A DNA stretch of 15,093 nucleotides from an uncultured bacterium (GCA_964609495.1 CAZSTA010000078.1:1-15093), one strand, 5' to 3'. Numbered from the stretch's first letter, positions 214 through 13,786 are shown. The notes: generated by a model from the sequence alone, not told the origin. Numbers and translations are program-made.

Positions 214-417
214 GTGATTAGTAAGGTTGTTTTAACACCCCGGGTTATTGCGGAATACTGCCAGGTAAGTAAGAGCGCAGTTTTAAAGTGGATCAAAGAT
301 AAGTGGTCATTATCGTATTGATGAGGAGAAATTTAGGGACTTCCTTAAGAAATATAATATGCCTATTAAGGAAGAATTTTTTGAACATAAATCTAACCAG
401 AAAGGGGGTGAAGAATA
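214..417 (+). pseudogene. Small MerR-superfamily HTH_17 (excisionase/AlpA-like) DNA-binding gene interrupted by a +1 frameshift near 302-306. Its stop codon (415-417) directly abuts the gvpA start.
   Basis: Frame 1 from GTG 214, with GGAGG SD at 205-209, reads VISKVVLTPRVIAEYCQVSKSAVLKWIKDKWSLSY*. Frame 2 from 302 reads [38 protein letters not shown]. Removing one nt around 304 yields a 68-aa HTH_17-like protein (..LKWIKDKGHYRIDEEKFRDFL..). This is either a true frameshift or a sequencing indel. Confidence 0.55.
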
Positions 418-624
418 GTGGCAGTAACAACCTCAATGGCTCCTTCAGGGTTAGCAGAGGTTCTCGACCGTATCCTGGATAAGGGTATCGTACTCGATGT
501 TTGGGTTAGAGTCTCTCTACTCGGCCTGGAGATCCTTGCTATTGAAGCAAGGGTAGTTCTTGCCGGTGTCGAGACCTACCTGAAGTATGCTGAAGCGGTT
601 GGCTTAACAGCTCCAGCAGCCTAA
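418..624 (+). CDS. gvpA: Major gas vesicle structural protein GvpA
   Basis: GTG start with SD AGGGGGTG 7 nt upstream. The protein contains [52 protein letters not shown], the canonical GvpA core. An ATG at 436 is an alternative start. Confidence 0.95.
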
Positions 625-636
625 AGCTCACCAGGT

Positions 637-663
637 GGGACTTGCCAAGGTCCCCTTATTTAT
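637..663 (+). terminator. GC-rich hairpin (GGGAC..GTCCC) immediately after the gvpA stop, followed by the T-rich TTATTTAT. A candidate leaky terminator or attenuator that could set the gvpA:downstream transcript ratio.
   Basis: The inverted repeat is read directly. Partial termination after gvpA is well known in other gvp operons (established knowledge). Confidence 0.4.
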
Positions 664-699
664 AAGTGCACCTTGCCAAGTATTCCCTATCTGCTAGTT

Positions 700-727
700 G
701 ATGAACATTCATCATGAATGCTTCATC
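700..727 (+). promoter_or_regulatory. Extended hairpin GATGAA-CATTCA-tca-TGAATG-c-TTCATC (a ~12-bp stem) overlapping the RBS region of the next gene.
   Basis: Near-perfect inverted repeat read from sequence. It could sequester the AGGGAG SD at 732-737 and so control translation. Its function is inferred. Confidence 0.35.
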
Positions 728-741
728 AAAAGGGAGAAAAA

Positions 742-1449
742 ATGGAGGACTTAGTTTTAGACCTTATCACCTATTATGGGGATAAAGTCTCAACGGTAGA
801 GGAACTAATCACTACTGCTTATTGTGCTATATTAAACTCGGACGAAAATTTTAATGGACTTGATAGAGAGAGGGAAACTCTGAAGATTAGATTATGCGAA
901 ATGCTGGCTAAAAATTGCTCCTTCCGAAGAAAAGATTTCAATAGTTTGATGGAGAAGATCCTTGCCGATTCTGAGACAAAAAGGGTAGCGATTCAGGAAG
1001 AGCAAAATCAGGTTAAGAAGGCTCTGGGGGAATATTTAGCCCAACAGAAAGAGCTAGCAACCTATCTAAAAGGAGAGCTAATAGGATTTGTACAGGGAAA
1101 CTCAGATAGGGGGCATGTTAAGGCAATAATAAATGAAATTAAGAATATGTATAGGGATAGGGGGGAACAAATTTTTGCCCTCCTACGTAATCTTCAGTTG
1201 TATATAGAGACTTTTCAGAAGGAACAGGAGAAGATAAATCATAAATTGCAGCGGCTTGTAGAGAGAGGTGAATCTTTAAAAATAGAAGACCTAAGACAGC
1301 TTGAGGCGGCTAAAAGTCGCGAGGAGAGAAAGGCTGAAAGAAAGCTAAGGCGGGAGGAAGTGGAAGGACTATTAGCTCATTTCAAGCAGGAACGATGGGA
1401 AAGAAGTTTTTATAGGAAAAATAAGAAATCAAAGAAAGGAGGAGAATAA
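742..1449 (+). CDS. Coiled-coil protein with a GvpC-like repeat unit; a probable gas-vesicle-associated structural or scaffold protein.
   Basis: ATG 742 is preceded by AGGGAG SD; the ORF-track start at 718 lacks an SD. Charged, heptad-rich sequence. The segment DFNSLMEKILADSETKRVAIQEEQNQVKKAL matches the repeat unit of the next ORF. Stop TAA 1447-1449 overlaps the next ATG (ATAATGA). Confidence 0.6.
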   Translation: MEDLVLDLITYYGDKVSTVEELITTAYCAILNSDENFNGLDRERETLKIRLCEMLAKNCSFRRKDFNSLMEKILADSETKRVAIQEEQNQVKKALGEYLAQQKELATYLKGELIGFVQGNSDRGHVKAIINEIKNMYRDRGEQIFALLRNLQLYIETFQKEQEKINHKLQRLVERGESLKIEDLRQLEAAKSREERKAERKLRREEVEGLLAHFKQERWERSFYRKNKKSKKGGE

Positions 1450-2504
1450 TGACTATCGGTCCTGGGATGAGAGAACTTGTGCAGGAAATTACCTCTTCCC
1501 ATAAGGAAAGAACAGAAACAGTTAAGGGAATAAGGGAGGAGGCAAAGCAAATGAGGGAAGAAGCAATGGATTTAATTAGAGATTTTCAAACTACCCGAAG
1601 TAATGAGAGCGTTCAGTTAAAGGAGGAGTTAACAGAGGGAAAAAGAGAAAGGAGCTCTCTTGTTAAAGGGATGCTAGAGGATTTTCAGAATTCAAGGGGA
1701 GAAGAAGCTACTCAAATGCGTAAAGATTTAGCTCAGGGAAGTAGCGAACGTCGTTCTGAAGTTGAGAAATTACAAGAGGATGCCCGGCAAAGCATAAAAG
1801 ATTTTCACGCCCAGCGTAAGGAAGTGGGTACTCAGTTGAGAAAGGATCTTTCTACAAGCACAGCCAATAGAAGATCTGAAGTAAAAGCACTGCTGAGTGA
1901 TGCTCAGGAAATGATAGGGGGATTCCAAAGTTCAAGGGGAGAGGCGAGTTCTGAATTGAGGAAGGAACTTTCTCAGAGCGTATCCAATAACAGGGCTGAG
2001 GTGGAAGACCTCAGGAGAAACGCTAAAGCGTTAGTAAAAGATTTTAATAACACCCGTATAGAGACAGGCAAAGAATTGAAGAATGAACTGACTAAGGATA
2101 AAGCTGAGAGATTATCTGAAGTTAGAAAAATGCGGGATGATTTTCGTAGGATACGCTCGGAAGTGAGAGCAGACTTAAAAGAGGTAGCGGTAGCCTGGCA
2201 GGGATTAACAAAACCTGTAGAAGTAAAGGAAGTTGAAGTAGAAGCTCCTCCCAAAGAAGCAGAGGTTCCTATAGAAGAGGAAACTCCAACGGTAGAAGAA
2301 GTAGTTTCCGAGGAAGGAGAACGGGATTTTGAGTCAGAACTTTTAGCAATTGTCAATCGACATCCCGAAGGAATAACCCTTGTGGAATCAGCTGAGAGAT
2401 TAGGTGTCGCTTCTGTCGTTCTTGGACGAGCCTCTAAGAGTCTCTTGGACAGTGGGAAGATTCGTAAGGAAGATAGATTCTACTTCCCGGTAACAAGCGA
2501 GTAG
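1449..2504 (+). CDS. GvpC-like repeat protein with at least five ~40-aa repeats (DFxxxRxExxxxLRKxLxxxxxxRRSEVxxL) followed by an acidic linker and a C-terminal winged-helix (BirA/MarR-like) domain.
   Basis: Repeats are visible in the translation: DFQTTRSNESVQLKEEL.., DFQNSRGEEATQMRKDL.., DFHAQRKEVGTQLRKDL.., GFQSSRGEASSELRKEL.., DFNNTRIETGKELKNEL... The C-terminus LLAIVNRHPEGITLVESAERLGVASVVLGRASKSLLDSGKIRKEDRFYF fits a winged-HTH pattern. Position directly downstream of gvpA matches where gvpC sits in cyanobacteria and haloarchaea. No direct sequence identity to known GvpC is claimed. Confidence 0.7.
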   Translation: MTIGPGMRELVQEITSSHKERTETVKGIREEAKQMREEAMDLIRDFQTTRSNESVQLKEELTEGKRERSSLVKGMLEDFQNSRGEEATQMRKDLAQGSSERRSEVEKLQEDARQSIKDFHAQRKEVGTQLRKDLSTSTANRRSEVKALLSDAQEMIGGFQSSRGEASSELRKELSQSVSNNRAEVEDLRRNAKALVKDFNNTRIETGKELKNELTKDKAERLSEVRKMRDDFRRIRSEVRADLKEVAVAWQGLTKPVEVKEVEVEAPPKEAEVPIEEETPTVEEVVSEEGERDFESELLAIVNRHPEGITLVESAERLGVASVVLGRASKSLLDSGKIRKEDRFYFPVTSE

Positions 2505-2511
2505 TGATATT

Positions 2512-2913
2512 ATGAAAAGTGAAGCTCTAACAAAAGTAGGAACAGGACGTCAAATTAAAACTGGTCTTGACCTTGCAAGGAGTCAGAGTCAGAGGATAAG
2601 AACTGCCAACTCCCTTTCCCAACCGAAGGAAACTTTTGAATATCTTCAGCACCTAACCGACAGGGATGTGAAAAAGGAACTGCAGAGGGAGAAGATACGT
2701 TTTGCTACTCAGGATGCAGCAGTAGAAAAAGTAAGACGTAGAATTAGTGAATTAAGAGAAAATTTGGCGCGGACTATCAATAGAAACAGAGCTCTTACTG
2801 AATTAAGGCATGAGCTACAAAAGGCCAGATGGGAGGGTAGGGACCCAGTACCGGCGGAGAAAGAAGAGTCAAACCCTGGTCAAAAATTAAATCAGATAGA
2901 AGTGCGATATTAA
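2512..2913 (+). CDS. Hypothetical basic coiled-coil protein of 133 aa.
   Basis: Open frame with a weak RBS. Arg/Lys/Glu-rich helical composition and no recognisable family. Co-oriented within the cluster. Confidence 0.45.
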   Translation: MKSEALTKVGTGRQIKTGLDLARSQSQRIRTANSLSQPKETFEYLQHLTDRDVKKELQREKIRFATQDAAVEKVRRRISELRENLARTINRNRALTELRHELQKARWEGRDPVPAEKEESNPGQKLNQIEVRY

Positions 2914-3138
2914 TATTCGCTCATATTGGAGTAGCGTGCTTAGCTAAAGATGTCTTTATTTCATAATCACCCTCCCCTAAACCCCTCCCATCGAGGGAGG
3001 GGAAAATGGGAAGACAGTTCTATCTGGATGTCCCCTCTCCCCTCAGTGGGAGAGGGATAGGGTGAGGGTGAAAATTATTTCTTTCGCTCATTAGATCAGT
3101 CTAGCGCACCTTATGCAAATATGAGCGTTAATATTAGA
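2911..3138. repeat. A 228-bp MITE/REP-like structured element. Terminal inverted repeats TAATATTCGCTCATATT (2911-2927) and its reverse complement AATATGAGCGTTAATATTA (3118-3136) enclose an inner imperfect inverted repeat (2967-2984 / 3054-3071) and two GC-rich hairpins: CCCCTCCC-atcga-GGGAGGGG (2982-3002) and CCCTCTCCC-ctcagt-GGGAGAGGG (3033-3056).
   Basis: Nested inverted repeats read directly. The GC-rich poly-C/poly-G tracts stand out in an AT-rich intergenic region between ORF-133 and gvpN. A third partial copy of TTCGCTCAT lies at 3084-3092. Confidence 0.5.
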
Positions 3139-3152
3139 AGAGGAGGAGGATT

Positions 3153-4055
3153 ATGCAGGAAGAGCCCACAGTGCTTACTGCCCAACCAAGTGCTGATTTT
3201 GTAGAGACACCTTATATAAAGGAGCTAACAAGTCGGGCTATCGACTATATCAGAGCTGGTTTTCCCGTACACTTCAGCGGCCCAGCAGGGGTAGGAAAAA
3301 CTACATTAGCTTTACATATGGCTGCTAAGCTGGGCCGCCCGATTATATTAATCGGTGGAGACCACGAATTTAATAGTTCTGATCTAGTTGGTGGACTCTA
3401 CGGCTATCGTAGAAGATATACAAAAGACAATTTTATCCGCTCAGTTCTCAAGACTGATGAGAGTATGACTTCCCATTGGATAGACAATCGTCTCACGGTT
3501 GCATGTCAACGTGGACTTACCCTTATCTATGATGAGTTTACCAGATCACGACCAGAGGCAAATAACGTGTTACTCTCTATATTAGAAGAGAAGCTCCTTC
3601 CCCTGCCTGCCGCTAGAGGAGGAGAGAATTACTTAAGGGTACATCCCGATTTTGCAGCTATATTTACCTCTAATCCTGAAGAGTATGCTGGAGTTTACAA
3701 TAGCCAAGATGCCCTACGTGACCGTATGATAGCTATAGAACTGGGTAATTTTGATGAGGAAACAGAAGTTGCTATTACCCAGGCAAAATCTAAGCTTCCC
3801 TTAGAAGACGCCCAGCGGATCGTTAATCTGGTGAGAAAAGTTAGAGAGGTTAAATCGAACAAGCTTACCCCTACCGTAAGAGCATGCATTATGATGGGAA
3901 AGGTATTGAAGTTAAAGGGTGCATCAGCTTTCAGTTATGACCATACTTTTAAGCAGATCTGTCAGGATATCCTTATGCCTGAGATTCCCAAGGAGGAGAG
4001 AGAAAAAATAAGAGAGGTGATAGAGGATGCTCTGCTACTTAAAGGAGGATCATAG
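3153..4055 (+). CDS. gvpN: Gas vesicle AAA+ ATPase GvpN
   Basis: Strong SD AGGAGGAGGA precedes the start. Walker A FSGPAGVGKTTLALHMAAKLGRP and Walker B LIYDEF are present. Size (300 aa) and motif spacing are typical of GvpN/CbbQ-type AAA_5 proteins. Confidence 0.9.
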   Translation: MQEEPTVLTAQPSADFVETPYIKELTSRAIDYIRAGFPVHFSGPAGVGKTTLALHMAAKLGRPIILIGGDHEFNSSDLVGGLYGYRRRYTKDNFIRSVLKTDESMTSHWIDNRLTVACQRGLTLIYDEFTRSRPEANNVLLSILEEKLLPLPAARGGENYLRVHPDFAAIFTSNPEEYAGVYNSQDALRDRMIAIELGNFDEETEVAITQAKSKLPLEDAQRIVNLVRKVREVKSNKLTPTVRACIMMGKVLKLKGASAFSYDHTFKQICQDILMPEIPKEEREKIREVIEDALLLKGGS

Positions 4056-4203
4056 TTTCGCAGTTTTTGAAGATACTAAACTGAAAACTCCGTTTCCAAG
4101 TGGAATTAAGTCTATACTCAGTAGATCGCAATGCTAATATTTTATTCACTAAAGGATACATTTTGTGGTTAAAAATCGTCGAACTTTTTTAGAAAAGGGC
4201 TTG

Positions 4204-4236
4204 TTTTGTCCAGATTTTGCAGGAAAAAGGACAAAA
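4204..4236. promoter_or_regulatory. Perfect 8-bp inverted repeat TTTTGTCC-N17-GGACAAAA in the 374-bp AT-rich region upstream of hsp20/cdc48. The spacer contains TTTGCAGGA, the same 9-mer that lies inside the flank-repeat promoter core (20-28 and 14100-14108). A small hairpin TTTTGC-gga-GCAAAA lies at 4290-4304.
   Basis: Read directly from sequence. The operator-like geometry suggests binding by a dimeric HTH regulator. Function is inferred. Confidence 0.35.
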
Positions 4237-4429
4237 ATTATCCACCTTTGTGATCTAATGATACTTCGTATTAGCTCTGCATAACCGTATTTTGCGGAGC
4301 AAAACCAAATATTTTGGGATAGAGGAGGATATGTGTAACAAATTCTGCAAAAATTCTTATTAATAGTAGATTTTTGTATTTATGCTAAGCATAATTGAAA
4401 AATCTGTGAAAGTATAGAGGTGATAGTAT

Positions 4430-4927
4430 ATGGCTGAAAAGGAAGAGAAGGATAGAATTGAGATAGACTTTTTTGGGGGACTCTTTAAAGAGATTGGGAA
4501 CCTTATTGATCGTGCCTCCAAGATGGGGGAGGAAGGATTTGAAGAAACAGGGGAGATAAAATTCCCCAAGGGAGGTAAGGCAGTATATGGTATTAGTGTA
4601 AGGACTCTAGCAGGTAAGCCAGTAATAGAGAGATTTGGGAATGTGAAGGAGACCTCTAAAGGTCCAGTGGTGGAAGAGGTTAGAGAGCCAATCGTTGATG
4701 TTTTTGACGAAAAAGATCATATCCTTGTTATTGCTGAATTGCCCGGTGTATCGGAAGAGGATATAAAAATCGAAGTTTCTGGAGATGTTTTTAACCTTAC
4801 CGCCTCTAGTAAAGGTAGGAAATATGCTAAGGAGCTCCTTCTGCCGGCTAAAGTAAAAGCAGAGCCCCTTAAGAGTTCCTACCGGAATGGAATTTTAGAA
4901 ATTACATTGGAAAAGATAGAGAGCTAG
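4430..4927 (+). CDS. Hsp20/alpha-crystallin-domain small heat-shock protein (GvpH-like)
   Basis: SD GAGGTGA precedes the start. The alpha-crystallin-domain signature VDVFDEKDHILVIAELPGVSEEDIKIEV...YRNGILEITLEK is present. Haloarchaeal GvpH is Hsp20-family (established knowledge). Confidence 0.85.
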   Translation: MAEKEEKDRIEIDFFGGLFKEIGNLIDRASKMGEEGFEETGEIKFPKGGKAVYGISVRTLAGKPVIERFGNVKETSKGPVVEEVREPIVDVFDEKDHILVIAELPGVSEEDIKIEVSGDVFNLTASSKGRKYAKELLLPAKVKAEPLKSSYRNGILEITLEKIES

Positions 4928-5013
4928 TGTCAACTTACCCCTACTGATTGTAACACGAAGTATAGACTGAATCAGGAGAGGTTTCCGTGCCTGATTTAAG
5001 AGGAGGTAAATGA

Positions 5014-7194
5014 ATGGCTATGCGGGCAACCAGGGATGATGTAAAAGCATTAAACCTTCGTGTTGCTGAGGCAAAACCTAAAGATGTTGGAAGGGGGATT
5101 ATACGGATAGACCCCCAGGACTTTGAGAAGATAGGGGTAGATGTAGGAGATATTATTCAAATTGAGGGAAAGAGAAGGACCGTAGCTAAGGTTATGCCCG
5201 CTTATCCTGAAGACCGTGGCAAGTCCATTATCCAGATGGATGGAATTTTACGGAGCAATGCCCAGATCTCTCTTGATGAAAAGGTAACTGTTCAAAAGAT
5301 TAGAAGTTCCCCGGCAGATAAGATAGTAATAAGTCCGTTGACTCTGACAAGATTAAGCCGGGAGAGTGACACTAGATATATCGGCACCCTCCTGGATGGA
5401 TTGCCCCTAATAGAGGGGGATATTATTAGAGCCAATCTATTTGGGACTCGTAGTCAGGATTTTACAGTTCTTAGTACTATCCCAAAGGGGGTAGTGCTGA
5501 TTAACCCAGGAACTATAATTGAAGTGAAAAAAAAGGAAGAGATAGAGGCTAAAGGGTCCAAAATTTCTTACGAAGATATTGGGGGGTTAAGTAAAGAATT
5601 ACAGAAGGTTAGAGAAATGATCGAGCTTCCTCTGAAATACCCTGAGATTTTTGAGCGTTTGGGGATAGACCCTCCAAAGGGAGTATTACTCTATGGACCT
5701 CCTGGATGTGGTAAGACGTTAATTGCCCGTGCTGTAGCGAATGAGACCTCGGCCTATTTTACCCATATTACTGGTCCAGAGATTATGGGGAAATATTATG
5801 GTGAGAGTGAGAGCCGACTGAGAATGGTTTTTGCAAAAGCACAAACTAATACACCTGCTATTATATTCATTGATGAAATCGATGCTATTGCCCCCAAAAG
5901 AGAGGAAATGGGAGGAGAAAAACAGGTAGAGAGGAGAGTAGTTGCTCAGCTGCTCTCTCTAATGGACGGATTAGAGTCACGTGGTAATGTAATCGTTATT
6001 GCTGCAACGAATATTCCTAATTCTATCGATCCTGCTTTAAGAAGACCAGGGAGATTTGATAGGGAAATTGAGATCAGTATCCCTGACCAAAGGGGACGCC
6101 TGGAGATTTTGCAGATTCATACCCGTGGTATGCCTCTAGCTCAGGATGTAGATTTAGCTCAGGATATAGATTTAGAAAAGTTATCCCAGATCACCCATGG
6201 TTTTGTTGGTGCTGATTTGGAAGCGTTATGTCGTGAGGCAGCGATGAATGTATTGAGGAGGATAATGCCGGATATTGATTTTCAATGGTGTGGGATTCCC
6301 TATGAGACTCTATTACAGCTCGAAGTAACAATGGCTGATTTTGGAGAGGCTTTAAAGGAAGTAGAACCTTCAGCTATCAGAGAGGTCTTTATTGAGATTC
6401 CAAATGTGAAATGGGAAGATGTAGGGGGTTTGGGATATATAAAGCAAAAGTTAATGGAAGCTGTAGAATGGCCATCTAAATATTCTATTCTATTTGAGAA
6501 GGCAAAGATAAGACATCCGAAGGGAATTCTCTTTTCTGGACCTCCAGGTACAGGTAAAACACTAGTGGCTAAAGCATTGGCTAATGAAAGTGGGGTTAAT
6601 TTTATCTCAGTTAAAGGTCCTGAATTGATGAGCAAATATATAGGGGAATCAGAAAGAGGGGTAAGAGAGGTGTTTAGGAAGGCAAAACAGGCCAGTCCCT
6701 GTATTATCTTCTTCGATGAATTTGAATCGTTGGTCCCTGAGAGGGGGCCCTCCTCGGATTCTCAGGTTACAGAGAGGGTGATTAGTCAATTCCTTACCGA
6801 GCTCGATGGACTGGAAGAACTGAAAGGTGTACTAGTTCTAGCTGCTACTAATAGAAGAGACCTTATTGATCCTGCTATTTTAAGACCTGGAAGGTTTGAT
6901 TTTATTCTGGGATTTCCACTCCCTGATGAAAGCACAAGGGAAGAGATCTTCAAGGTTCATACGAGAGGAAAACCTCTGGCTCCTGATGTTAGTCTAAAAG
7001 GACTAGCTAGGAAGATGGATGATATGTCCGGTGCAGATATAGAAGCCATCTGTCGAGAAGCTTCTATGATAGCAATTAGAGAAGCTATTAGAGATGAATG
7101 TATGGATAATTTTCGGATCTCTCAAAAGTATTTTGATATGGCTATTGAATGGTTGAAGAGGCAGAAAGGAGAAATGGATGTCTTACCAGGGTAG
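5014..7194 (+). CDS. CDC48/VCP-like AAA+ ATPase with a CDC48_N domain and two AAA domains.
   Basis: The N-domain reads [27 protein letters not shown]. Walker A motifs are GPPGCGKT (D1) and GPPGTGKT (D2); Walker B motifs are IIFIDEID and IIFFDEFE. The protein is 726 aa, with SD AGGAGGT 6 nt upstream. The first 9 codons and RBS are shared with gvpJ. Confidence 0.9.
6139..6174 (+). repeat. In-frame 18-nt tandem duplication (gctcaggatGtagattta / gctcaggatAtagattta) encoding [12 protein letters not shown] in the D1-D2 linker of the CDC48-like gene.
   Basis: Seen directly; one mismatch between copies. Confidence 0.8.
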
Positions 7195-7924
7195 ATATTT
7201 CTATGGGATTATAGAGGAACCACAGTTTAAGAAATTTGAATTTTCTGGAGTGGGAGGGGAAGAGGTATATACAACTAGTTACCAGAATCTTTCCGCAGTT
7301 GTAAGTAATATTGAAGTTGGAGAGATAGATCCTATTAGAAAGAATGTACTTGCCCATACAGTAGTTCAGGATGAGGTTCTAAAAATTTATGATCTTCTTC
7401 CTATGGGCTTTGGAATGATAACCAATAGTGGGGAAGAGGTTATGAAGTTATTAGAGAAAAATTATCAGACGATTCTAAAAGAACTAAACCGACTTAAGGG
7501 TAAGATAGAGGGCGAGGTAAAAATCTTCTGGGACGAGGAGGCTATAATGAGAGAACTTCAGAACGAAAATCCGAAGTTCTCCAAGCTTAAAGCCAAGATA
7601 AGAGAAGCTTCATCTCCCGTTGAAGCGCAGAATCTACTTGCGGAAGCTGGTAGGTTGATAGAGCATATTGCTATGGAATGGAAGACTAAATATGCCGAGC
7701 GTGCCTATAATATCCTTAAAGACCTATCTATCGAGGCTAAGCTAAATGAGCCTTTTGGAGTTAAGAATATCCTAAATGCTTCTTTTCTGCTGGAAAGGAC
7801 TATGGAGAATAAATTTAAAGAAGAAATCTACCGATTAGATAGTGAGTATCAGGATAGACTAGATTTCAAATATGTAGGTCCCTTACCACCCTATAATTTC
7901 GTCAAAGTAAAACTGGAGCTGTAA
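7178..7924 (+). CDS. gvpF: Gas vesicle protein GvpF/GvpL family
   Basis: [10 protein letters not shown]...[17 protein letters not shown]...[26 protein letters not shown] matches the GvpF/L family pattern. The start overlaps the cdc48 3' end by 17 nt. Confidence 0.85.
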
Positions 7925-7925
7925 G

Positions 7926-8165
7926 ATGCTTGGACTCTCACTTTTATATGATATTTTTATAGGTGTTCCCTTTACCCTTGGAGTGAAAATACTGGAGAAA
8001 CTGAGGGATGAGATAGATAAGGAGCGCCTTATAACGGAAGATTCGATCAAGAAGAGGCTTCAGCAGCTACAACTATTGTTACAGGATGGAGAGATAAGTG
8101 AGGAAGAGTATGAAGAGTTAGAAGCTAAACTTATTGAAAGACTAAGAGCGGTAAAGGGAATATAG
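7926..8165 (+). CDS. gvpG: Gas vesicle protein GvpG
   Basis: A 79-aa protein with a hydrophobic N-terminus LLYDIFIGVPFTLGVKILEKL and the C-terminal EISEEEYEELEAKLIERL motif typical of GvpG. Confidence 0.8.
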   Translation: MLGLSLLYDIFIGVPFTLGVKILEKLRDEIDKERLITEDSIKKRLQQLQLLLQDGEISEEEYEELEAKLIERLRAVKGI

Positions 8166-8251
8166 TCAATGACCCCGCCCATGAAGGGCGAGGCTTGAGG
8201 GATCAAGCCTACGTTGACTAAGGGTAAGAGTTTCCGCCGACTAGTCTTTTT
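8163..8251 (+). promoter_or_regulatory. Structured intergenic element. A 7-bp outer inverted repeat TAGTCAA/TTGACTA (8163-8169 / 8214-8220) encloses two hairpins, CGCCC-atgaa-GGGCG (8176-8190) and GCTTGA-ggga-TCAAGC (8193-8208). The palindrome GACTAGTC followed by T5 lies at 8239-8251.
   Basis: Inverted repeats read directly. Same architecture as the 2911-3138 element (an outer inverted repeat around two GC hairpins). Probable RNA-stability or attenuator element between gvpG and gvpJ. Confidence 0.35.
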
Positions 8252-8274
8252 ATGAAAGTTAAGGAGGTAAATAA

Positions 8275-8652
8275 ATGGCTATGCAGGCAACCAGGGATGG
8301 ATCTTCTACCCTGGTGGATGTAATTGATCGCGTATTGGATAAAGGGCTTGTTATTAATGCTGATATCTGTGTTTCAGTAGCCGGGGTCGAACTTTTAGGG
8401 ATAAAGGTGAGGGCGGCTTTAGCTTCTTTCGAGACGGCAGCCAAGTATGGGTTAGAATTTCCTAGTGGAACAAATTATGAAACAGCTGCCTGGAAAGAGG
8501 TAAAGGTAGCTAAAGAGGAGTGTCCACAATGTGGAAAGAGGGTTCCTGCCGAAGAACTTATGAATGAAGGCTGTCCATGGTGTGGATGGATGAGTGCAAA
8601 GGCAAAGAAAGCTAAGCCTAAGCTAGCCCCTGAAATATCGGTAGAGGGATAG
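8275..8652 (+). CDS. gvpJ: GvpJ/GvpA-family protein with a C-terminal zinc-ribbon extension.
   Basis: N-terminus MAMQATRDGSSTLVDVIDRVLDKGLVINADICVSVAGVELLGIKVRAALASFETAAKYGL is the GvpA/J core. C-terminus CPQCGKRVPAEELMNEGCPWCGW carries four Cys arranged as CxxC...CxxC. Confidence 0.85.
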   Translation: MAMQATRDGSSTLVDVIDRVLDKGLVINADICVSVAGVELLGIKVRAALASFETAAKYGLEFPSGTNYETAAWKEVKVAKEECPQCGKRVPAEELMNEGCPWCGWMSAKAKKAKPKLAPEISVEG

Positions 8653-8655
8653 AAT

Positions 8656-9012
8656 ATGCCAGAGGATAAGAAAAATAGATTCAAAGGTTTATTGGGGCTT
8701 GATCCTACTTTAGGGGTAGGAGGCAAACTTTTAGACTATGTAGAAGAAGCACATGAAAAAGAAAAGACATTAAATAGTGATTACTATGCCTTTTGCCCAA
8801 AATGCGGTAAGAGACAGGTTAAGGTAAGTTTAATTGAAAATGGATGCTTCCTCTGTGGCTGGAAAGGAAAAGAAGAGGAGATAGAGAAGGCAAAACCAGG
8901 AAACGTAGAAGGAACTTCAGGATATAAAAGTATCTGCCCTAATTGCGATGCTTCTGTCATTACGGAGGAATTTCTGGAAAATGGGTGCTGGAAGTGTGGA
9001 TATAAAAAATGA
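8656..9012 (+). CDS. Small protein carrying two zinc-ribbon modules.
   Basis: The two modules are CPKCGKRQVKVSLIENGCFLCGW and CPNCDASVITEEFLENGCWKCGY. This is the same 'ENGCxxCGW' module as at the GvpJ C-terminus. SD GAGGGA precedes the start. Confidence 0.6.
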   Translation: MPEDKKNRFKGLLGLDPTLGVGGKLLDYVEEAHEKEKTLNSDYYAFCPKCGKRQVKVSLIENGCFLCGWKGKEEEIEKAKPGNVEGTSGYKSICPNCDASVITEEFLENGCWKCGYKK

Positions 9013-9454
9013 GGGTAATTTGACTCAATTTCTTGAAAATCTTGATGAAAAGAGCCGGGCTTTACTCTGGTATCTGTGGTGGCATAGGCATGCCAATATA
9101 TCTGAATTAAGGGAAGTTATAGATGTTTCAAGTGATTTTGAGGTTTTACATAGGTTGAAAGAAGTCATAAATGAGAAAGCCAAGAAGCTCTTAGGTAAGT
9201 TGATAGTAAACTTTGAGCCGTCGAAAATAGATCCTTATACTGGAGAAAAGGTCTTTTTTAGCTGGTGGCTTCTGGATGAGGAAGATAGTACTCTTTTAGG
9301 TGAGAATAAGCAACTGGTTGATATATTCAATGAGAAAGATAATATTACTATAATTGCCCAACTACCTGCTACAGTAGATTTTACCTCTCCAGAAATACAA
9401 TTTAAGAATAGTATATTGAAAATAAAACTAAAGAAGGTAGAGAAGAATGACTGA
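8981..9454 (+). CDS. Degenerate alpha-crystallin (Hsp20-like) paralog with a W-rich N-terminal domain. The start is uncertain: the ORF is open from 8948, ATG 8981 is chosen because GAGGAA lies 9 nt upstream, and it overlaps the previous gene out of frame.
   Basis: The C-terminal half, VDIFNEKDNITIIAQLPATVDFTSPEIQFKNSILKIKLKK, parallels the VDVFDEKDHILVIAELPGV...NGILEITLEK of the 4430 gene. The N-terminal half, LWYLWWHRHANISELREVIDV.., is unassigned. Confidence 0.5.
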   Translation: MGAGSVDIKNEGNLTQFLENLDEKSRALLWYLWWHRHANISELREVIDVSSDFEVLHRLKEVINEKAKKLLGKLIVNFEPSKIDPYTGEKVFFSWWLLDEEDSTLLGENKQLVDIFNEKDNITIIAQLPATVDFTSPEIQFKNSILKIKLKKVEKND

Positions 9455-9929
9455 AAAAGACAAAGATGAAGAAAAAATAGGTGGAGTAACTCAGGGAGTC
9501 CTTCACGGATTAGGGAGAATTATCCCTGGCTTTGAAGAAATTATAAAAGGTTTAGAAAAATCTACCGCTTTCCAGGAAAGATTAAAAGTGGCTAATGAAG
9601 AGATAGAAAAGAGGTTAAAAAAAGCCCCAACAAGGGGTAGGAATAATGTCATTCCACCTGAGAATACACTAAAGGTGAACCAAAACGCTGAGAGAGAATT
9701 GTTGATAGATATATTTGATGAAGGAAGTTATCTAAGGATAATTGCTGAGATGCCAGGTGTGGACGAAAAAGAGATAAAAATTGAAATAAAGGATAACCTA
9801 CTTATACTTTCTACCCCATCTGCTAGGTATAAGTATTACAGAGAGATAGAGCTACCCTGTTTGGTAAAAAAGGAATTTAACTTAGTTTACAAGAATGGTA
9901 TATTAGAGATCAAATTGGAGAAGAGATAA
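9447..9929 (+). CDS. Hsp20/alpha-crystallin-domain protein (second GvpH-like paralog)
   Basis: IDIFDEGSYLRIIAEMPGVDEKEIKIEIKDNLLILSTP...YKNGILEIKLEK is present. ATG 9447 overlaps the upstream stop at 9452-9454. Confidence 0.8.
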   Translation: MTEKDKDEEKIGGVTQGVLHGLGRIIPGFEEIIKGLEKSTAFQERLKVANEEIEKRLKKAPTRGRNNVIPPENTLKVNQNAERELLIDIFDEGSYLRIIAEMPGVDEKEIKIEIKDNLLILSTPSARYKYYREIELPCLVKKEFNLVYKNGILEIKLEKR

Positions 9930-9932
9930 TAA

Positions 9933-10256
9933 ATGGCTATTGATATTGATGCAGATAACCTCAAACAGGGTGTTTTGGGTTTGGTAATCGCCCTTGTGGA
10001 AATTATTAGGGATGCCCTGAAGATTCAAGCATTTAAAAGGGTGGAAAGCGGCATTCTTACCGAGGAAGAATGTGAGAGGTTAGGAGAAGCACTTATGGAT
10101 TTAGATATTGCAATCGAGGAGATAAAGGAAGAGCAGGGGATTACAGAATCTGTTCAGGCTATAAGGGATGGATTAGATGAGATTGTCGATGATGTAGTAG
10201 ATAGAATGGTTAACCCTGAAAGATGGAAAGAAGAGGCGAAAGAAAAAGGAATATAA
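9933..10256 (+). CDS. gvpK: Gas vesicle protein GvpK
   Basis: LGLVIALVEIIRDALKIQAFKRVESGILTEEECERLGEALMDLD matches the GvpK family pattern. Confidence 0.85.
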   Translation: MAIDIDADNLKQGVLGLVIALVEIIRDALKIQAFKRVESGILTEEECERLGEALMDLDIAIEEIKEEQGITESVQAIRDGLDEIVDDVVDRMVNPERWKEEAKEKGI

Positions 10257-10265
10257 GGGATGGAT

Positions 10266-11435
10266 ATGGAAGAGATATTTTATGCTGTGTTGGCTTTACA
10301 TATAGCTGGTAAACCTGTTAATAGAGAGAATATAAAAGCTATCCTTAAAGCTGTAGGGACACCGATCGATGAGAAGGCGCTTGATGCTATGGTACTCTTT
10401 GTTGAGACTTTGGAAGCTGCTCGTAGGGAGAGACAGAGGACTATAGATCCCAGAATCATCAAATTTCTAACAGATGAGCTAGAGCGACAGAAGGTAAAGA
10501 CAGAGCGACTGGAAGCCCTTTTAGATGAACTAACCAAATCTGTTACTCTATCAGAGGCTTATGAGTTTATACCTTCTGAGCGAGATACGGCTGAGGCAGA
10601 AGAAATAACTATTGAAGAAACTGAAAGTATCCCCCGGTATGAGGGAAGATATGTGTACGGAGTGGCTATGGATGGGAGAGAGGTGAATCTTGGTCCGATA
10701 GGAATAGATGGTAATGAGGTCTATACTATACCTTATAGGGGCCTTTCAGTTATTGTGCATAACTGTCCTCCTGAACCATACCAATCTAACGATGATGAAA
10801 TAGTAAAAAACTGGATAAGAACCCATCAGAATGTCCTTGATGTGGCAAAGGAACAATTCGGTACTATTATACCTATGGGCTTTGATATCATACTACAACC
10901 TGATGATGCTACTTCTCCCGATCAAGTTGTAAGAGATTGGCTTAAGGAAGATTATGATAGGCTCTTGACTGTGATGGAAAAGATAGAGGGTAGGGATGAG
11001 TACGGAGTACAGATTTTCTATGATCCAAAGGTGATAGGTGAGCTTATTGCCAAAAATAATGGGGAGCTCGAAAAATTAAAGGAGGAAATAGCTACCAAAT
11101 CGCCAGGGCTTGCCTATATGTATAAACAGAAGATGGAAAAGCTAATAAAGGAAGAAATGGAAAGGCTTGCTGAAGAATGGTTTAGAGATTTCTATAGTAG
11201 GATTAAAAGGCATTGTGATGATATTGTTATAGAGAAAACTAAAAAAGTTGAGAAGGATAAGATAATGCTAATTAATCCCTCCTGTCTTGTAGTCAAAGAG
11301 AATGTTGAGAGCTTAGGTGAAGAGCTAGAAAAGATCAATAGTATAGAAGGATTCTCTGTCCGTTTTACCGGTCCATGGCCTCCATACAGCTTTGTCTCCA
11401 AGCCAACGATAACAACCTCTAATATAGGAGGATAA
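10266..11435 (+). CDS. gvpL: GvpL/GvpF-family protein with an N-terminal domain (~60 aa) resembling the ribosomal stalk P1/P2 (L12e) dimerisation domain. ATG 10260 is an alternative start.
   Basis: The GvpF/L core is RYVYGVAMDG..VYTIPYRGLSVIVHN...NVLDVAKEQFGTIIPMGFDII. The N-terminus MEEIFYAVLALHIAGKPVNRENIKAILKAVGTPIDEKALDAMVLFVETLEAA aligns by eye with archaeal P1, (M)EYIYAALLLHSAGKEI.EENIKAVLEAAG..VDE.R.KALVAAL. The AGGGA SD sits 5 nt before ATG 10266. Confidence 0.8.
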   Translation: MEEIFYAVLALHIAGKPVNRENIKAILKAVGTPIDEKALDAMVLFVETLEAARRERQRTIDPRIIKFLTDELERQKVKTERLEALLDELTKSVTLSEAYEFIPSERDTAEAEEITIEETESIPRYEGRYVYGVAMDGREVNLGPIGIDGNEVYTIPYRGLSVIVHNCPPEPYQSNDDEIVKNWIRTHQNVLDVAKEQFGTIIPMGFDIILQPDDATSPDQVVRDWLKEDYDRLLTVMEKIEGRDEYGVQIFYDPKVIGELIAKNNGELEKLKEEIATKSPGLAYMYKQKMEKLIKEEMERLAEEWFRDFYSRIKRHCDDIVIEKTKKVEKDKIMLINPSCLVVKENVESLGEELEKINSIEGFSVRFTGPWPPYSFVSKPTITTSNIGG

Positions 11436-11525
11436 AATTGATGCTACATAATTGTCAAGGGACTGGAAAAGTCAGCCGTTCCCATAAGCTAATCTCTGGT
11501 ATCTGTGCGGAAGGATAGATAAATA

Positions 11526-12617
11526 ATGGAACCTACTAGAGATACACATGCTACATTAGTAGACCTCTTGGATAGAATTCTAGATAAAGGCTTAATACTT
11601 AATGCGGATCTAATTATCCATATAGCTGGCATCCCTCTTTTGGGAGTTAACCTAAAGGCTTGCCTTGCTGGAATGGAAACGATGCTAAAGTATGGTATCT
11701 GGCAAGACTGGGATGAGGCACAGAGGGTGATTGCCACTGAAGAAGAGAGGAAGAAGAAAAAAGTTCCCTTAGCTCCACAGGAAGATGTCTTCCTAAAGAT
11801 ATTTGCCTCCCTGTGGTACAGTAAAGGTATCTATCATACCCGGAGACCGGGGCATCTATACATCACCGATAGAAGGATATTCTTATTTAGAAAGGAACCA
11901 GCTGAAGTACTATTTCATTGTATGTATAAGGAGATAAAAGGAATCAGTACTGAAAGAAAGGCAAATATTACTGGCAAAGAGACGGATTATCTCTATCTAT
12001 GGCTTAACTCAGGAGAGATCGTTAAGTTGCATCCGACAGATGCTCAGCTTGTTAGAGAGACAATAGAAGAAAGAATGAAATTACTGGGGCTAGAGTTGAA
12101 GAAAGATATCCCCCTTCCTATACTCGATGAGGTAGCAATAAAGTTTTTATCTGAGGAAGAAGAAATTATCCATTCGGGAAAGATATCTTATCTAGTGGCT
12201 GAATCAAGACCGGGGGGTATTACCACCGAGGTATGGAAGCCGGGACATTTATATCTGACTGATAGGAGGTTAGTCTGGTGGTACGATTTCGATGGCAGGA
12301 TTGCTTCTGAATTACCTCTTGAGAAAATTCTGGGAGTTGAAATAAAAAGAAAAGATTTGGGTGATATGTTAAAGAATAAATCTGTTTTAGATTTGGCTTA
12401 TAAGAATGGTAGTAATAGAATTGCCTCTTTCTCTAGTAGTACGGAGGGACTAAATGAGTGGGAAAAAATAATAGGTGAGGTTATGATAGAATACGACAAG
12501 ACAGAAGAGTGCCCCAGGTGTGGCAGAAGGGCACCTATAGATAAGCTGCTTAAAGAAGGCTGTTCAATCTGTGGCTGGGTAAGCCCCAGGCTTAGAAAAA
12601 AGGAGATAGAAGCTTAA
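11526..12617 (+). CDS. Fusion protein combining an N-terminal GvpA/J/M-family domain, two GRAM/PH-like repeats and a C-terminal zinc ribbon.
   Basis: N-terminus [57 protein letters not shown] is the GvpA-family core. The two repeats are ..RRPGHLYITDRRIFLF.. and ..WKPGHLYLTDRRLVWWY.., matching the GRAM/bPH 'G.LYLT..RL.F' signature. C-terminus is CPRCGRRAPIDKLLKEGCSICGW. Confidence 0.8.
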   Translation: MEPTRDTHATLVDLLDRILDKGLILNADLIIHIAGIPLLGVNLKACLAGMETMLKYGIWQDWDEAQRVIATEEERKKKKVPLAPQEDVFLKIFASLWYSKGIYHTRRPGHLYITDRRIFLFRKEPAEVLFHCMYKEIKGISTERKANITGKETDYLYLWLNSGEIVKLHPTDAQLVRETIEERMKLLGLELKKDIPLPILDEVAIKFLSEEEEIIHSGKISYLVAESRPGGITTEVWKPGHLYLTDRRLVWWYDFDGRIASELPLEKILGVEIKRKDLGDMLKNKSVLDLAYKNGSNRIASFSSSTEGLNEWEKIIGEVMIEYDKTEECPRCGRRAPIDKLLKEGCSICGWVSPRLRKKEIEA

Positions 12618-12875
12618 ATGGATATTGATGAAATAATTAGAAAAACCCAAGAAACTTTTACTAGACTTACCAAGATACCTATCGATGGAATTACTGGTAT
12701 ATCAAAGACTGACCAGGGGTGGATGGTAGCACTAGAAGCACTGGAGAGAAGAGCCATACCTGATACTATGGATATACTAGGACTTTATGAGGTTCGCCTC
12801 GACAATGATGGGAATCTTCTTAATTTTGAGAGAAAGAAACTCCGTAAACGCGGTGAAACAGAGGGGGGAGAGTAG
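12618..12875 (+). CDS. gvpO: Gas vesicle protein GvpO
   Basis: DQGWMVALEALERRAIPDTMDILGLYEVRLDNDGNLLNFERKKLRKRG matches the GvpO signature (GW.v.vE..E....PDT.d.L..Y.v.lD.dG.L....R...Y.RG). ATG overlaps the upstream stop (TAAATG). Confidence 0.8.
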   Translation: MDIDEIIRKTQETFTRLTKIPIDGITGISKTDQGWMVALEALERRAIPDTMDILGLYEVRLDNDGNLLNFERKKLRKRGETEGGE

Positions 12876-12876
12876 A

Positions 12877-13110
12877 ATGAGTGCATGGAATAAATGTCCC
12901 AGTTGTGGAATCACTGTCAGTGGGATTGCCGATTACTGTCCTAATTGTGGAGAACCCTGGACTATAGAATGTCAAAATTGCGGAATAACTTGGCGATTCT
13001 GGGAAAATTATAAATTTTGTCCCAATTGTGGAGCTAAGGTAGAAAAGCGTGGTGTCACCAGAGGAAAGCAGAAGGTAGGACCAGGGGTTGGAAAACCAAA
13101 GGTTATTTAA
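12877..13110 (+). CDS. Double zinc-ribbon protein with four CxxCG pairs.
   Basis: MSAWNKCPSCG..YCPNCGEPWTIECQNCG..FCPNCGAKV. ATG 12877 is one nt after the gvpO stop, with a G-rich SD. The ORF-track start at 12787 would overlap gvpO and is unlikely. Confidence 0.6.
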   Translation: MSAWNKCPSCGITVSGIADYCPNCGEPWTIECQNCGITWRFWENYKFCPNCGAKVEKRGVTRGKQKVGPGVGKPKVI

Positions 13111-13147: not shown

Positions 13148-13416
13148 GGCTCTTTGAGGGAAAGTGTGAAGGGAAGTTAAGCACATTCGAGGAGGATATG
13201 TTGTCGGAAATTATCAAAGTTTCGATATCCGTATCCTCTCTGTTTGATGAGCTTAATCTCGTTATTGATCCCCTCGGCTAAACCATTGTTTATCCTCTCT
13301 ATAAAGTAATTCAAACTCTCCTCCCACCAAGAGCGAAGAGTATTTACGAATTTGAATAAAGTTCTTACCGCTTGCTCTACCTTATGACACCAAGAGGAGA
13401 AAAATCTCTCTTCGCT
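13148..13416 (-). mobile_element. Remnant of an ISL3-family insertion sequence: the 3' (C-terminal) transposase fragment on the minus strand (13177-13416) plus its terminal inverted repeat reading GGCTCTTTGAGGGAAAGTGTGAAGG inward from 13148. The other end is absent.
   Basis: Minus-strand translation gives SWWEESLNYFIERINNGLAEGINNEIKLIKQRGYGYRNFDNFRQHILLECA*. I recognise the 'EG.NNKIK.IKR.AYGYRNF.NFR.RIL' tail as ISL3 (DDE_Tnp_ISL3) transposases. Upstream frames are broken by stops. The GGCTCTT terminus matches my recollection of ISL3 inverted repeats. No reverse-complement inverted-repeat copy is found at higher coordinates. Confidence 0.6.
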
Positions 13417-13480: not shown

Positions 13481-13693
13481 GCAAATAGATTTAGTTCTTC
13501 ATATATTCCTAAGGAGGAGATAACCGATCTAGCGGGAGATATGTCCTTAGAAGAGAGATTAGAATTATCTGAGAAAAAGATAATCGAGGGCGCTCTAAAA
13601 GAGGTGGGAGGAAATCAAAGCCGGGCTGCCAAGATGTTAGGTATATCCCGATATAAATTGCGTTATCGAATGCAGAAGTATGATCTACTATAG
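13481..13693 (+). pseudogene. C-terminal fragment (Fis-type HTH_8) of a sigma-54-dependent NtrC-family transcriptional activator.
   Basis: ..MSLEERLELSEKKIIEGALKEVGGNQSRAAKMLGISRYKLRYRMQKYDLL* matches the C-terminal HTH of NtrC/NifA-type activators. No AAA sigma-54 domain is found upstream in any frame. ATG 13541 has a GGGAG motif immediately upstream, so a 50-aa stand-alone product is possible but unlikely. Confidence 0.55.
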
Positions 13694-13759: not shown

Positions 13760-13786
13760 CCCCGAGGCTTGCCTCGGGGTTTTCTT
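13760..13786 (+). terminator. Rho-independent terminator: a 9-bp perfect GC stem CCCCGAGGC-tt-GCCTCGGGG followed by TTTTCTT.
   Basis: Read directly; the T-run follows on the plus strand. A second hairpin ATATGTG..CACATAT lies at 13715-13738. Confidence 0.75.

Follow-up and report, generated by a model that had tools for sequence, protein, structure and literature searches.

What a CDC48-type unfoldase is doing among genes for gas vesicles is the question raised by a stretch of 15,093 nucleotides (nt) from an uncultured bacterium (GCA_964609495.1 CAZSTA010000078.1:1-15093), referred to here at its full length as the window. Gas vesicles are buoyancy organelles, and also genetically encoded ultrasound reporters, whose assembly is poorly understood; CDC48 is best known from archaea and eukaryotes. 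Between positions 418 and 13110 lie 18 co-directional, tightly packed open reading frames (ORFs), all on the + strand and with no rival gene of comparable support on the - strand, in which the core set of GvpN, GvpF/L, GvpG, GvpJ/M-type proteins, GvpK and GvpO is encoded in one operon together with a small heat-shock protein (sHsp) of the Hsp20 family and, next to it, a CDC48 ATPase. Comparison with related loci revealed that this Hsp20-CDC48 pair is an integral part of a widespread, mostly anaerobe-borne gvp operon type found in at least 15 bacterial phyla. An earlier reading of the window, made without database searches (the sequence-only reading), had presented the cluster as non-canonical; that oddity disappears with its assignment to a widespread cluster type.

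The CDC48 ATPase and its small heat-shock partner

The ATPase gene (5014..7194, + strand) encodes a predicted CDC48/VAT-type double-ring AAA+ unfoldase of N-D1-D2 architecture, much as the sequence-only reading had it in calling this a CDC48-type double-AAA protein: CDC48_N (E = 1.3e-30), CDC48_2 (E = 7e-10) and two AAA domains were recovered, the TIGR01243 model was passed with 966.8 bits against a cut-off of 802.65, and the best NCBIfam match is the generic CDC48 model only. Among solved structures the nearest is that of VAT, the VCP-like ATPase of Thermoplasma acidophilum (5g4f, 752 bits over residues 13-712), a proven unfoldase whose known partner is the 20S proteasome. As with VAT and archaeal Cdc48, the alignment runs over the full length of N-D1-D2, both pore loops carry aromatic residues, and the Walker and arginine-finger motifs are intact (GPPGCGKT, IIFIDEIDA, KYYGESE and RRPGRFD in D1; GPPGTGKT, IIFFDEFES, KYIGESE and LRPGRFD in D2), whereas the window protein is bacterial, is encoded inside a gas-vesicle operon and lacks an HbYX-type tail at its C-terminus. 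Across 81 orthologs both rings keep their Walker A/B motifs, their arginine fingers and the aromatic residues of the pore loops, which take the forms K[FY]YGESE in D1 and K[YWF][VI]GESE in D2. Mean ortholog identity to the window CDC48 is 61% in the N-domain, 80% in D1 and 66% in D2, and conservation of the N-domain suggests that it may contact a conserved partner. The second AAA+ enzyme of the operon is GvpN (3153..4055, + strand; TIGR02640, 337.3 bits against 266.8; PF07728), a canonical single-ring MoxR-like ATPase having neither an N-domain nor a double ring of the threading type, and GvpN and CDC48 are not paralogs.

The gene before cdc48 (4430..4927, + strand) encodes an sHsp with an alpha-crystallin domain (PF00011, E = 6e-9, 36.3 bits) that passes the NF041800 'archaeal Hsp20' model with 147.6 bits against a cut-off of 140. 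Its family, of 72 members in all, has a strongly conserved N-region, and the usual C-terminal I/V-X-I/V (IXI) oligomerisation motif is missing: in 49 of the 57 members where the last-strand motif was found, the protein ends 4-7 residues after the last strand. The sequence-only reading had counted three alpha-crystallin paralogs and also a GvpH-like gene. Two of the three match PF00011, namely the sHsp at 4430 and hsp20c (9447..9929, + strand; 21.1 bits against 20.8), which reaches 83.8 bits on NF041800, below the 140 required, and aligns with the first by hhalign at 99.8%. The third (8981..9454, + strand) combines a conserved N-domain with a crystallin domain that lacks its central ~34 residues; hhalign to Hsp20 families (97%, E = 8e-12 and 1e-10) covers the outer strands only, no Pfam family is matched, and the protein is a truncated crystallin relic. 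As to GvpH, no ORF in the window passes the PF05455 model, the sHsp at 4430 scoring 14.9 bits against 22 and the other two paralogs giving no match. The window sHsps fit generic HSP20 better than GvpH, with which they have in common the Hsp20 superfamily and a place in a gvp cluster. A relationship is nonetheless apparent from a PF05455-positive Methylosinus protein (28.9 bits against 22, annotated GvpH), which occupies the same position before CDC48 and is 40% identical to the crystallin domain of the sHsp at 4430. Haloarchaeal GvpH prevents aggregation of GvpM (PMC6107691).

Junction spacing across the operon ranges from -65 to +374 nt, with 11 junctions overlapping or no longer than 7 nt, which bears out the earlier description of gvp genes on one strand with tight or overlapping junctions. 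The stop of cdc48 overlaps the start of gvpF by 17 nt; elsewhere, p243 and p351 (the two genes that follow gvpA) overlap by 1 nt, p351 and p133 are separated by 7 nt, gvpF and gvpG by 1 nt and the gvpM-like gene and gvpO by none, and gaps of 3 nt occur between the gvpJ-like gene and the zinc-ribbon gene Zn2, between hsp20c and gvpK, and between gvpK and gvpL. Larger gaps precede gvpN (239 nt), hsp20 (374 nt) and cdc48 (86 nt). The 374-nt gap, which separates gvpN from hsp20 at 4056-4429, is AT-rich and non-coding; relatives carry a gene for a protein of ~105-115 amino acids (aa) there, and within the gap neither a remnant of such genes nor a + strand promoter consensus was found.

Recurrence of the pair in gas-vesicle clusters

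To place the pair, the 80 closest relatives of the window CDC48 (63-80% identity, one genome per species) were taken and their loci compared by tblastn with the window proteins. These loci come under 16 phylum-level labels: Dehalococcoidia, Atribacterota, Acetothermia, Aerophobetes, Clostridia, Desulfobacterota in the wide sense, Nitrospirota, Nitrospinota, Latescibacterota, Planctomycetota, Acidobacteriota/Aminicenantes, Cloacimonetes, Sumerlaeota, Omnitrophota, Actinomycetota and Patescibacteria. Genes for gas vesicles were present in 74 of the 80, under 15 of the 16 labels, and at least three gvp families were seen in 56 of the 61 loci having at least 8 kb of flank; the loci without gvp genes are short or edge-cut, with one exception (L048) taken up below. 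Of the 73 loci in which enough sequence is available, 55 encode Hsp20 within 1.2 kb upstream of CDC48; on the downstream side the neighbour of CDC48 is GvpF in 55 loci, and in many of these the two genes abut or overlap. All matched genes lie on the CDC48 strand, an Hsp20 match in L071 being the sole exception. In the protein database the nearest CDC48 is 81% identical; the four metagenome contigs that encode it share the gene order of the window, as does a metagenome-assembled genome (MAG) of Dehalococcoidales. Pairwise identity of CDC48 tracks that of Hsp20 (r = 0.75), GvpK (0.58), GvpA (0.31) and GvpN (0.29; Spearman, all Mantel p <= 0.002).

Embedding of cdc48 and hsp20 in gvp clusters is thus recurrent, and it extends to two methanotroph plasmids. 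In the plasmid collection every CDC48 match was below 60% identity to the window CDC48; the best bacterial ones, on Methylocella tundrae T4 p1 (53.5%) and Methylosinus sp. C49 pMSC49b (52.3%), belong to gvp operons that end with Hsp20, a ~190-aa protein and CDC48, and the next (Rhizobium, Microvirga and Methylobacterium, 47-49%) stand alone, away from any gvp or Hsp20 gene. Within the window, no + strand terminator-like site flanks the Hsp20-CDC48 block and promoters were not above chance; one weak terminator-like site lies inside cdc48 (5404-5418). The sequence-only reading had allowed that the block might be an unrelated insertion, with its own promoters and terminators and unconserved in related clusters. 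Because flanking terminators and above-chance promoters are lacking, cdc48 overlaps gvpF, and the block recurs in the same place, it is not an accidental insertion, and the proposal of a dedicated block stands in the sense that Hsp20-CDC48 is a conserved part of the gvp cluster.

Additional chaperone-type genes accompany the pair in sister loci, among which an ArsA/Get3-like ATPase was found in 17 and Hsp70 in four, together with repeated-CxxC zinc-finger proteins. A single-domain ArsA/Get3-like ATPase (~314 aa) stands between Hsp20 and CDC48 in 14 loci (L032, L034, L036, L040, L041, L047, L049, L054, L056, L058, L060, L064, L073 and L074), giving a three-gene chaperone block in Nitrospirota, Latescibacterota, Omnitrophota, Syntrophorhabdaceae and others. 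Hsp20 and ArsA-like ATPases had been recognised in gvp operons of several phyla and proposed to act as chaperone and energiser (Castillo & Saier 2010, PMC2963123), so that hsp20, listed in the sequence-only reading as foreign to textbook clusters, is indeed present and was already published. The sister loci with ArsA resemble those clusters, whereas CDC48 is unmentioned in that paper and the window itself has no ArsA. A further family of ~190-230 aa, with no Pfam match, lies directly beside CDC48 in 19 loci (L018, L023, L026, L048, L058, L060 and others) and in both methanotroph plasmids (L088 7412-7969 and L089 9396-9977; 40-43% identity, E ~1e-50); absent from the window, it is a candidate third component or adaptor of Hsp20-CDC48.

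Similar pairs exist in archaea. In Halobacterium pNRC200 (L086 19576-22226) and Natrinema thermotolerans (L087 5756-8265), Hsp20 directly precedes CDC48 and shares its strand, in each case outside gvp clusters, with the nearest gvp genes of pNRC200 (gvpL and a 'gas vesicle protein' gene) ~20 kb away and with CDC48 only ~50% identical to that of the window. Archaeal heat-shock regulons (Phr/HSR1) are described as pairing an sHSP with an AAA+ ATPase (PMC10653856). The haloarchaeal plasmids resemble the window in having Hsp20 directly upstream of CDC48, and the window sHsp fits the archaeal model. The pair could then be a general stress-proteostasis module of the archaeal heat-shock type, serving the whole proteome and riding along with the gvp genes, as its apparently solitary occurrence in L048 would also allow. 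Such a role is improbable, given that the pair stays between gvpN and gvpF across the 16 labels (gvp genes being present under 15), that spacing to gvpF is so often zero or negative, that CDC48 co-diverges with Gvp proteins, and that gvp and Hsp20 genes are both absent around the bacterial CDC48s next in similarity. The distribution fits an ancient sHsp-CDC48 pair that a gvp cluster may have taken up and carried along as it spread.

An experimentally active gvp cluster is that of Desulfobacterium vacuolatum (FWXY01000008:1268-24724, 23.5 kb), a species not among the matches listed for a Desulfobacteraceae CDC48.

A possible role in handling shell subunits

Gene content, operon structure, conservation, co-divergence and motif integrity are supported directly; the substrates, a physical cooperation of sHsp and CDC48, and a role on the assembly side are inferred. 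The function that we hold to be somewhat better than an even bet is that sHsp and CDC48 serve as a non-proteolytic holdase and unfoldase for GvpA-family subunits during vesicle formation. The sHsp paralogs would bind the very hydrophobic GvpA, GvpJ-like and GvpM-like subunits, or their off-pathway aggregates; the CDC48 hexamer would use ATP to thread the bound subunits through its aromatic pore loops; and unfolded, soluble subunits would be released for use or reuse by the GvpF/L/G/K/N assembly machinery. As a working analogy, sHsp with ClpB/Hsp104 likewise joins a holdase to a double-ring AAA+ threading motor without a protease. The analogy has its limits, in that CDC48 belongs to another AAA+ clade, the window encodes no Hsp70, and cooperation of the two proteins is here only presumed.

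That the proposed machine would be non-proteolytic is in keeping with the CDC48 C-terminus. The window protein ends in ...DVLPG, and no recurrent HbYX-type ending was seen among the 81 orthologs; since the tails are variable and without a penultimate tyrosine, docking to a proteasome is unlikely. No protease family occurs among the 14 commonest accessory families listed for related clusters. The same results bear on whether CDC48 might instead be a regulatory unfoldase that removes a transcription or assembly factor and so times vesicle formation. There is a precedent for control of this kind in haloarchaea, where GvpD lowers GvpE, and possible regulators are at hand: an HTH_17 gene upstream of gvpA, sigma-54 activators in 11 related loci, and the proteins p351 and p168, each with a winged-helix-like domain. 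With neither a listed protease nor an HbYX tail, with an sHsp and no regulator as the constant partner, with CDC48 unrelated to GvpD, and with no GvpD or GvpE homolog found by profile searches of the window, a regulatory role appears very improbable.

Disassembly and recycling, the role preferred in the sequence-only reading, would have CDC48 act as a segregase that pulls GvpA from intact, old or collapsed vesicles, whereby slow-growing cells could become less buoyant or recover shell protein. Removing subunits from stable assemblies is what CDC48/VAT enzymes do, and VAT is the closest structure; the pore motifs are intact, there is no coupling to a protease, and conservation inside gvp clusters is strong. 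Apart from collapse and dilution, no means of removing gas vesicles is known. However, cdc48 is co-transcribed and apparently translationally coupled with assembly genes such as gvpF, so that builder and dismantler would be made in fixed proportion, and GvpH, a relative of the partner sHsp, acts during assembly on GvpM in its soluble form. Sequence cannot separate disassembly from assembly-side quality control; co-transcription with assembly genes and the GvpH-like sHsp lean slightly toward the latter, and disassembly as the role of the pair is considered unlikely.

Several points weigh against a holdase-unfoldase role in vesicle formation. The substrate and the sHsp-CDC48 contact rest on inference. 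About a quarter of the related loci have no Hsp20 directly upstream of CDC48, and an internal promoter could lie concealed in the 374 nt ahead of hsp20. In L048 (Candidatus Scalindua rubra), Hsp20, an intervening gene, CDC48 and a second Hsp20 are accompanied by the ~200-aa family, with no gvp gene in the sequence analysed (10 kb upstream and 1.6 kb downstream of CDC48); either the module can apparently occur without a gvp cluster, or the cluster is in separate pieces here. All 80 loci are from MAGs or single-amplified genomes, in which gas-vesicle clusters are known from genes alone. Moreover, so far as we are aware, the model systems Halobacterium, Anabaena, Priestia megaterium and Serratia assemble gas vesicles without CDC48, and because these four do so, CDC48 is not universally required.

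A broader proposal takes in both formation and removal, and is put forward tentatively, as rather doubtful. In it, sHsp and CDC48, joined in sister clusters by the ArsA/Get3-like ATPase or the ~200-aa protein, would form a dedicated ATP-driven machine extracting GvpA-family subunits from aggregates, from nucleation complexes, or from collapsed or aged shells.

Other genes of the cluster and its surroundings

Profile searches supported the assignments of GvpA, N, F, G, K, L and O, seven of the ten gvp genes listed in the sequence-only reading; GvpJ stands as a best match below cut-off, and GvpC and GvpH fall short of family membership. The major shell protein GvpA (418..624, + strand; 68 aa, GTG start) matches PF00741 (E = 5.5e-13) and NF006874 (117.2 bits against 100). 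The remaining + strand matches are gvpF (7178..7924; PF06386, E = 3.7e-57), gvpG (7926..8165; PF05120, E = 8.9e-12), gvpK (9933..10256; PF05121, E = 3.6e-18), gvpL (10260..11435; PF06386, E = 2.4e-61 over residues 129-379) and gvpO (12618..12875; PF05800, E = 1.3e-21). Two further GvpA-family genes are assigned as best matches that stay below the haloarchaeal model cut-offs: a GvpJ-like protein with a C-terminal zinc ribbon of the CPxCG...GCxxCGW type (8275..8652, + strand; PF00741, E = 2e-16; halo GvpJ, its best NCBIfam match, 98.6 bits against 125), and a GvpM-like protein carrying two GRAM/PH-like domains and a zinc ribbon (11526..12617, + strand; PF00741, E = 2.4e-14; halo GvpM 90.7 bits against 109; matches to GRAM, bPH_3 and Vps36).

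GvpL, for which an exact sequence look-up gave no record, has an N-terminal extension of ~125 aa. Its first ~50 residues resemble the dimerisation domain of the archaeal ribosomal stalk protein P1 (TIGR03685 over residues 5-49, E = 2.5e-6, 27.8 bits against a cut-off of 100; PDB 3a1y, E = 1.4e-6). It is not a full-length P1, the match being limited to the N-terminal ~46 residues, without the acidic C-terminal tail, and the remainder being GvpL. The P1-like extension was also seen in 6-7 related loci, mostly of Dehalococcoidia with one Clostridia MAG. The fusions of GvpL and GvpA-family proteins pointed out in the sequence-only reading therefore exist and are not novel, since they recur in related clusters: GvpJ with zinc ribbon in 32 loci, GvpM with GRAM in 22, and GvpL with the P1-like domain in the 6-7 just mentioned.

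Zinc ribbons occur in four proteins of the operon (encoded from 8275, 8656, 11526 and 12877), one more than previously counted. The 118-aa product of Zn2 (8656..9012, + strand; weak DZR match) has two ribbons of the CPxCG...GCxxCGW type and cross-matches in BLAST with those of GvpJ and GvpM, so that the type occurs four times (8500-8652, 8780-9012 and 12510-12617), which suggests that it is a shared docking module of the GvpJ-like, GvpM-like and 118-aa proteins. The idea that the shared ribbon is a universal handle for CDC48 was weakened by its presence in only 32 of the 80 CDC48-containing loci. The last gene of the operon (12877..13110, + strand; PF13240, PF12773) encodes a double zinc ribbon of a different type, and homologs were found at cluster ends in related loci; its longest ORF starts at 12787 inside gvpO, the start at 12877 being more likely.

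The two genes that follow gvpA belong to a helical family with no name, which this cluster type retains in different phyla. The 243-aa protein p243 (718..1449, + strand; no Pfam family), kept after gvpA in 32 related loci by tblastn, is a paralog of p351 (hhalign to the p351 family 99.4%, E = 6e-22). The 351-aa protein p351 (1449..2504, + strand) consists of 5-6 amphipathic repeats of 33-40 aa (40-residue autocorrelation 0.97 against a shuffle maximum of 0.06) followed by a winged-helix-like domain. It had been labelled GvpC-like, and with GvpC it shares tandem helical repeats and a gene position just after gvpA; in contrast to GvpC, none of 34 family members matches Gas_vesicle_C (PF01304) at E <= 0.01, whereas 18 of the 34 match ApoLp-III and 17 Apolipoprotein, and p351 has the extra C-terminal domain and an adjacent paralog. 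It is thus an analog of GvpC by architecture and position only. Both apolipoprotein-like proteins probably coat the shell, as GvpC does. The winged-helix-like domain (weak EutK_C match, conserved in 26 loci) is odd for a presumed shell-coating protein. Next comes p133 (2512..2913, + strand), a conserved 133-aa protein with no family match and with homologs in 16 loci; homology to the ~105-aa family that follows gvpN elsewhere was not demonstrable (hhalign 36%).

The window, a complete NCBI contig, is probably from a genome of Dehalococcoidia (Chloroflexota), because its best relatives sharing gene order are Dehalococcoidales and Dehalococcoidia MAGs. An archaeal contig, as CDC48, the archaeal-type Hsp20 and the P1-like domain might suggest, was rejected on the bacterial neighbours of close relatives (FtsH, TilS, sigma-54) and a Fis-type HTH in the window flank. 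Immediately upstream of the operon, a small HTH_17-type DNA-binding gene that may be a local regulator (215..417, + strand; tblastn) abuts gvpA and is apparently disrupted: aligned with the intact 80-aa protein of a related locus (L005), whose gene ends at the gvpA start, it is split between frame +1 (220-297) and frame +2 (302-415) with ~10 residues missing, either as a pseudogene or through assembly error. Just 3' of gvpA, a hairpin with a T-rich tract (637..654, + strand) is a possible attenuator; it and a strong terminator hairpin at 13760-13779 are the only convincing + strand terminator-like sites. Totals of promoter-like and terminator-like sites in the window were not above those of shuffled sequences, a sigma-54 promoter search gave 1 match against 3.8 expected, and an Rfam search of the window gave none. 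The 3' flank is a patchwork, containing the C-terminal 40 residues of an ISL3 transposase (13177-13314, - strand; PF01610, E = 2.6e-13) and a 50-aa Fis-type HTH_8 fragment (13541-13693) resembling a sigma-54 activator C-terminus, perhaps a regulator of the cluster that was cut by an insertion-sequence event. From the split HTH_17 gene and these fragments one could argue that the cluster is a decaying remnant which no longer makes vesicles, its embedded genes having no current gas-vesicle role here. With all 18 operon ORFs intact and their motifs conserved, and with the split possibly an error of metagenomic assembly, this is hardly credible.

In the searchable literature no paper was found linking CDC48, VCP or p97 to gas-vesicle clusters, although the arrangement can already be seen in RefSeq entries for cultured methanotrophs. 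Natural gvp clusters mostly fail in E. coli (PMC10344784), and shell-protein proteotoxicity is a recognised obstacle (PMC12848028). The conserved unfoldase and holdase pair is a testable candidate for keeping GvpA-family proteins assembly-competent, or for removing vesicles. The bacterial CDC48 clade gains a clear genomic assignment, and attention is drawn to conserved gvp-cluster families that are as yet unnamed, namely p243/p351, p133, the ~200-aa neighbour of CDC48 and the shared zinc-ribbon type. Should the pair prove to be the dedicated extraction machine tentatively proposed above, there would be an active pathway of gas-vesicle quality control and disassembly that is missing from the four model systems, and this would be the first CDC48-type unfoldase tied to a protein-shelled organelle of bacteria.

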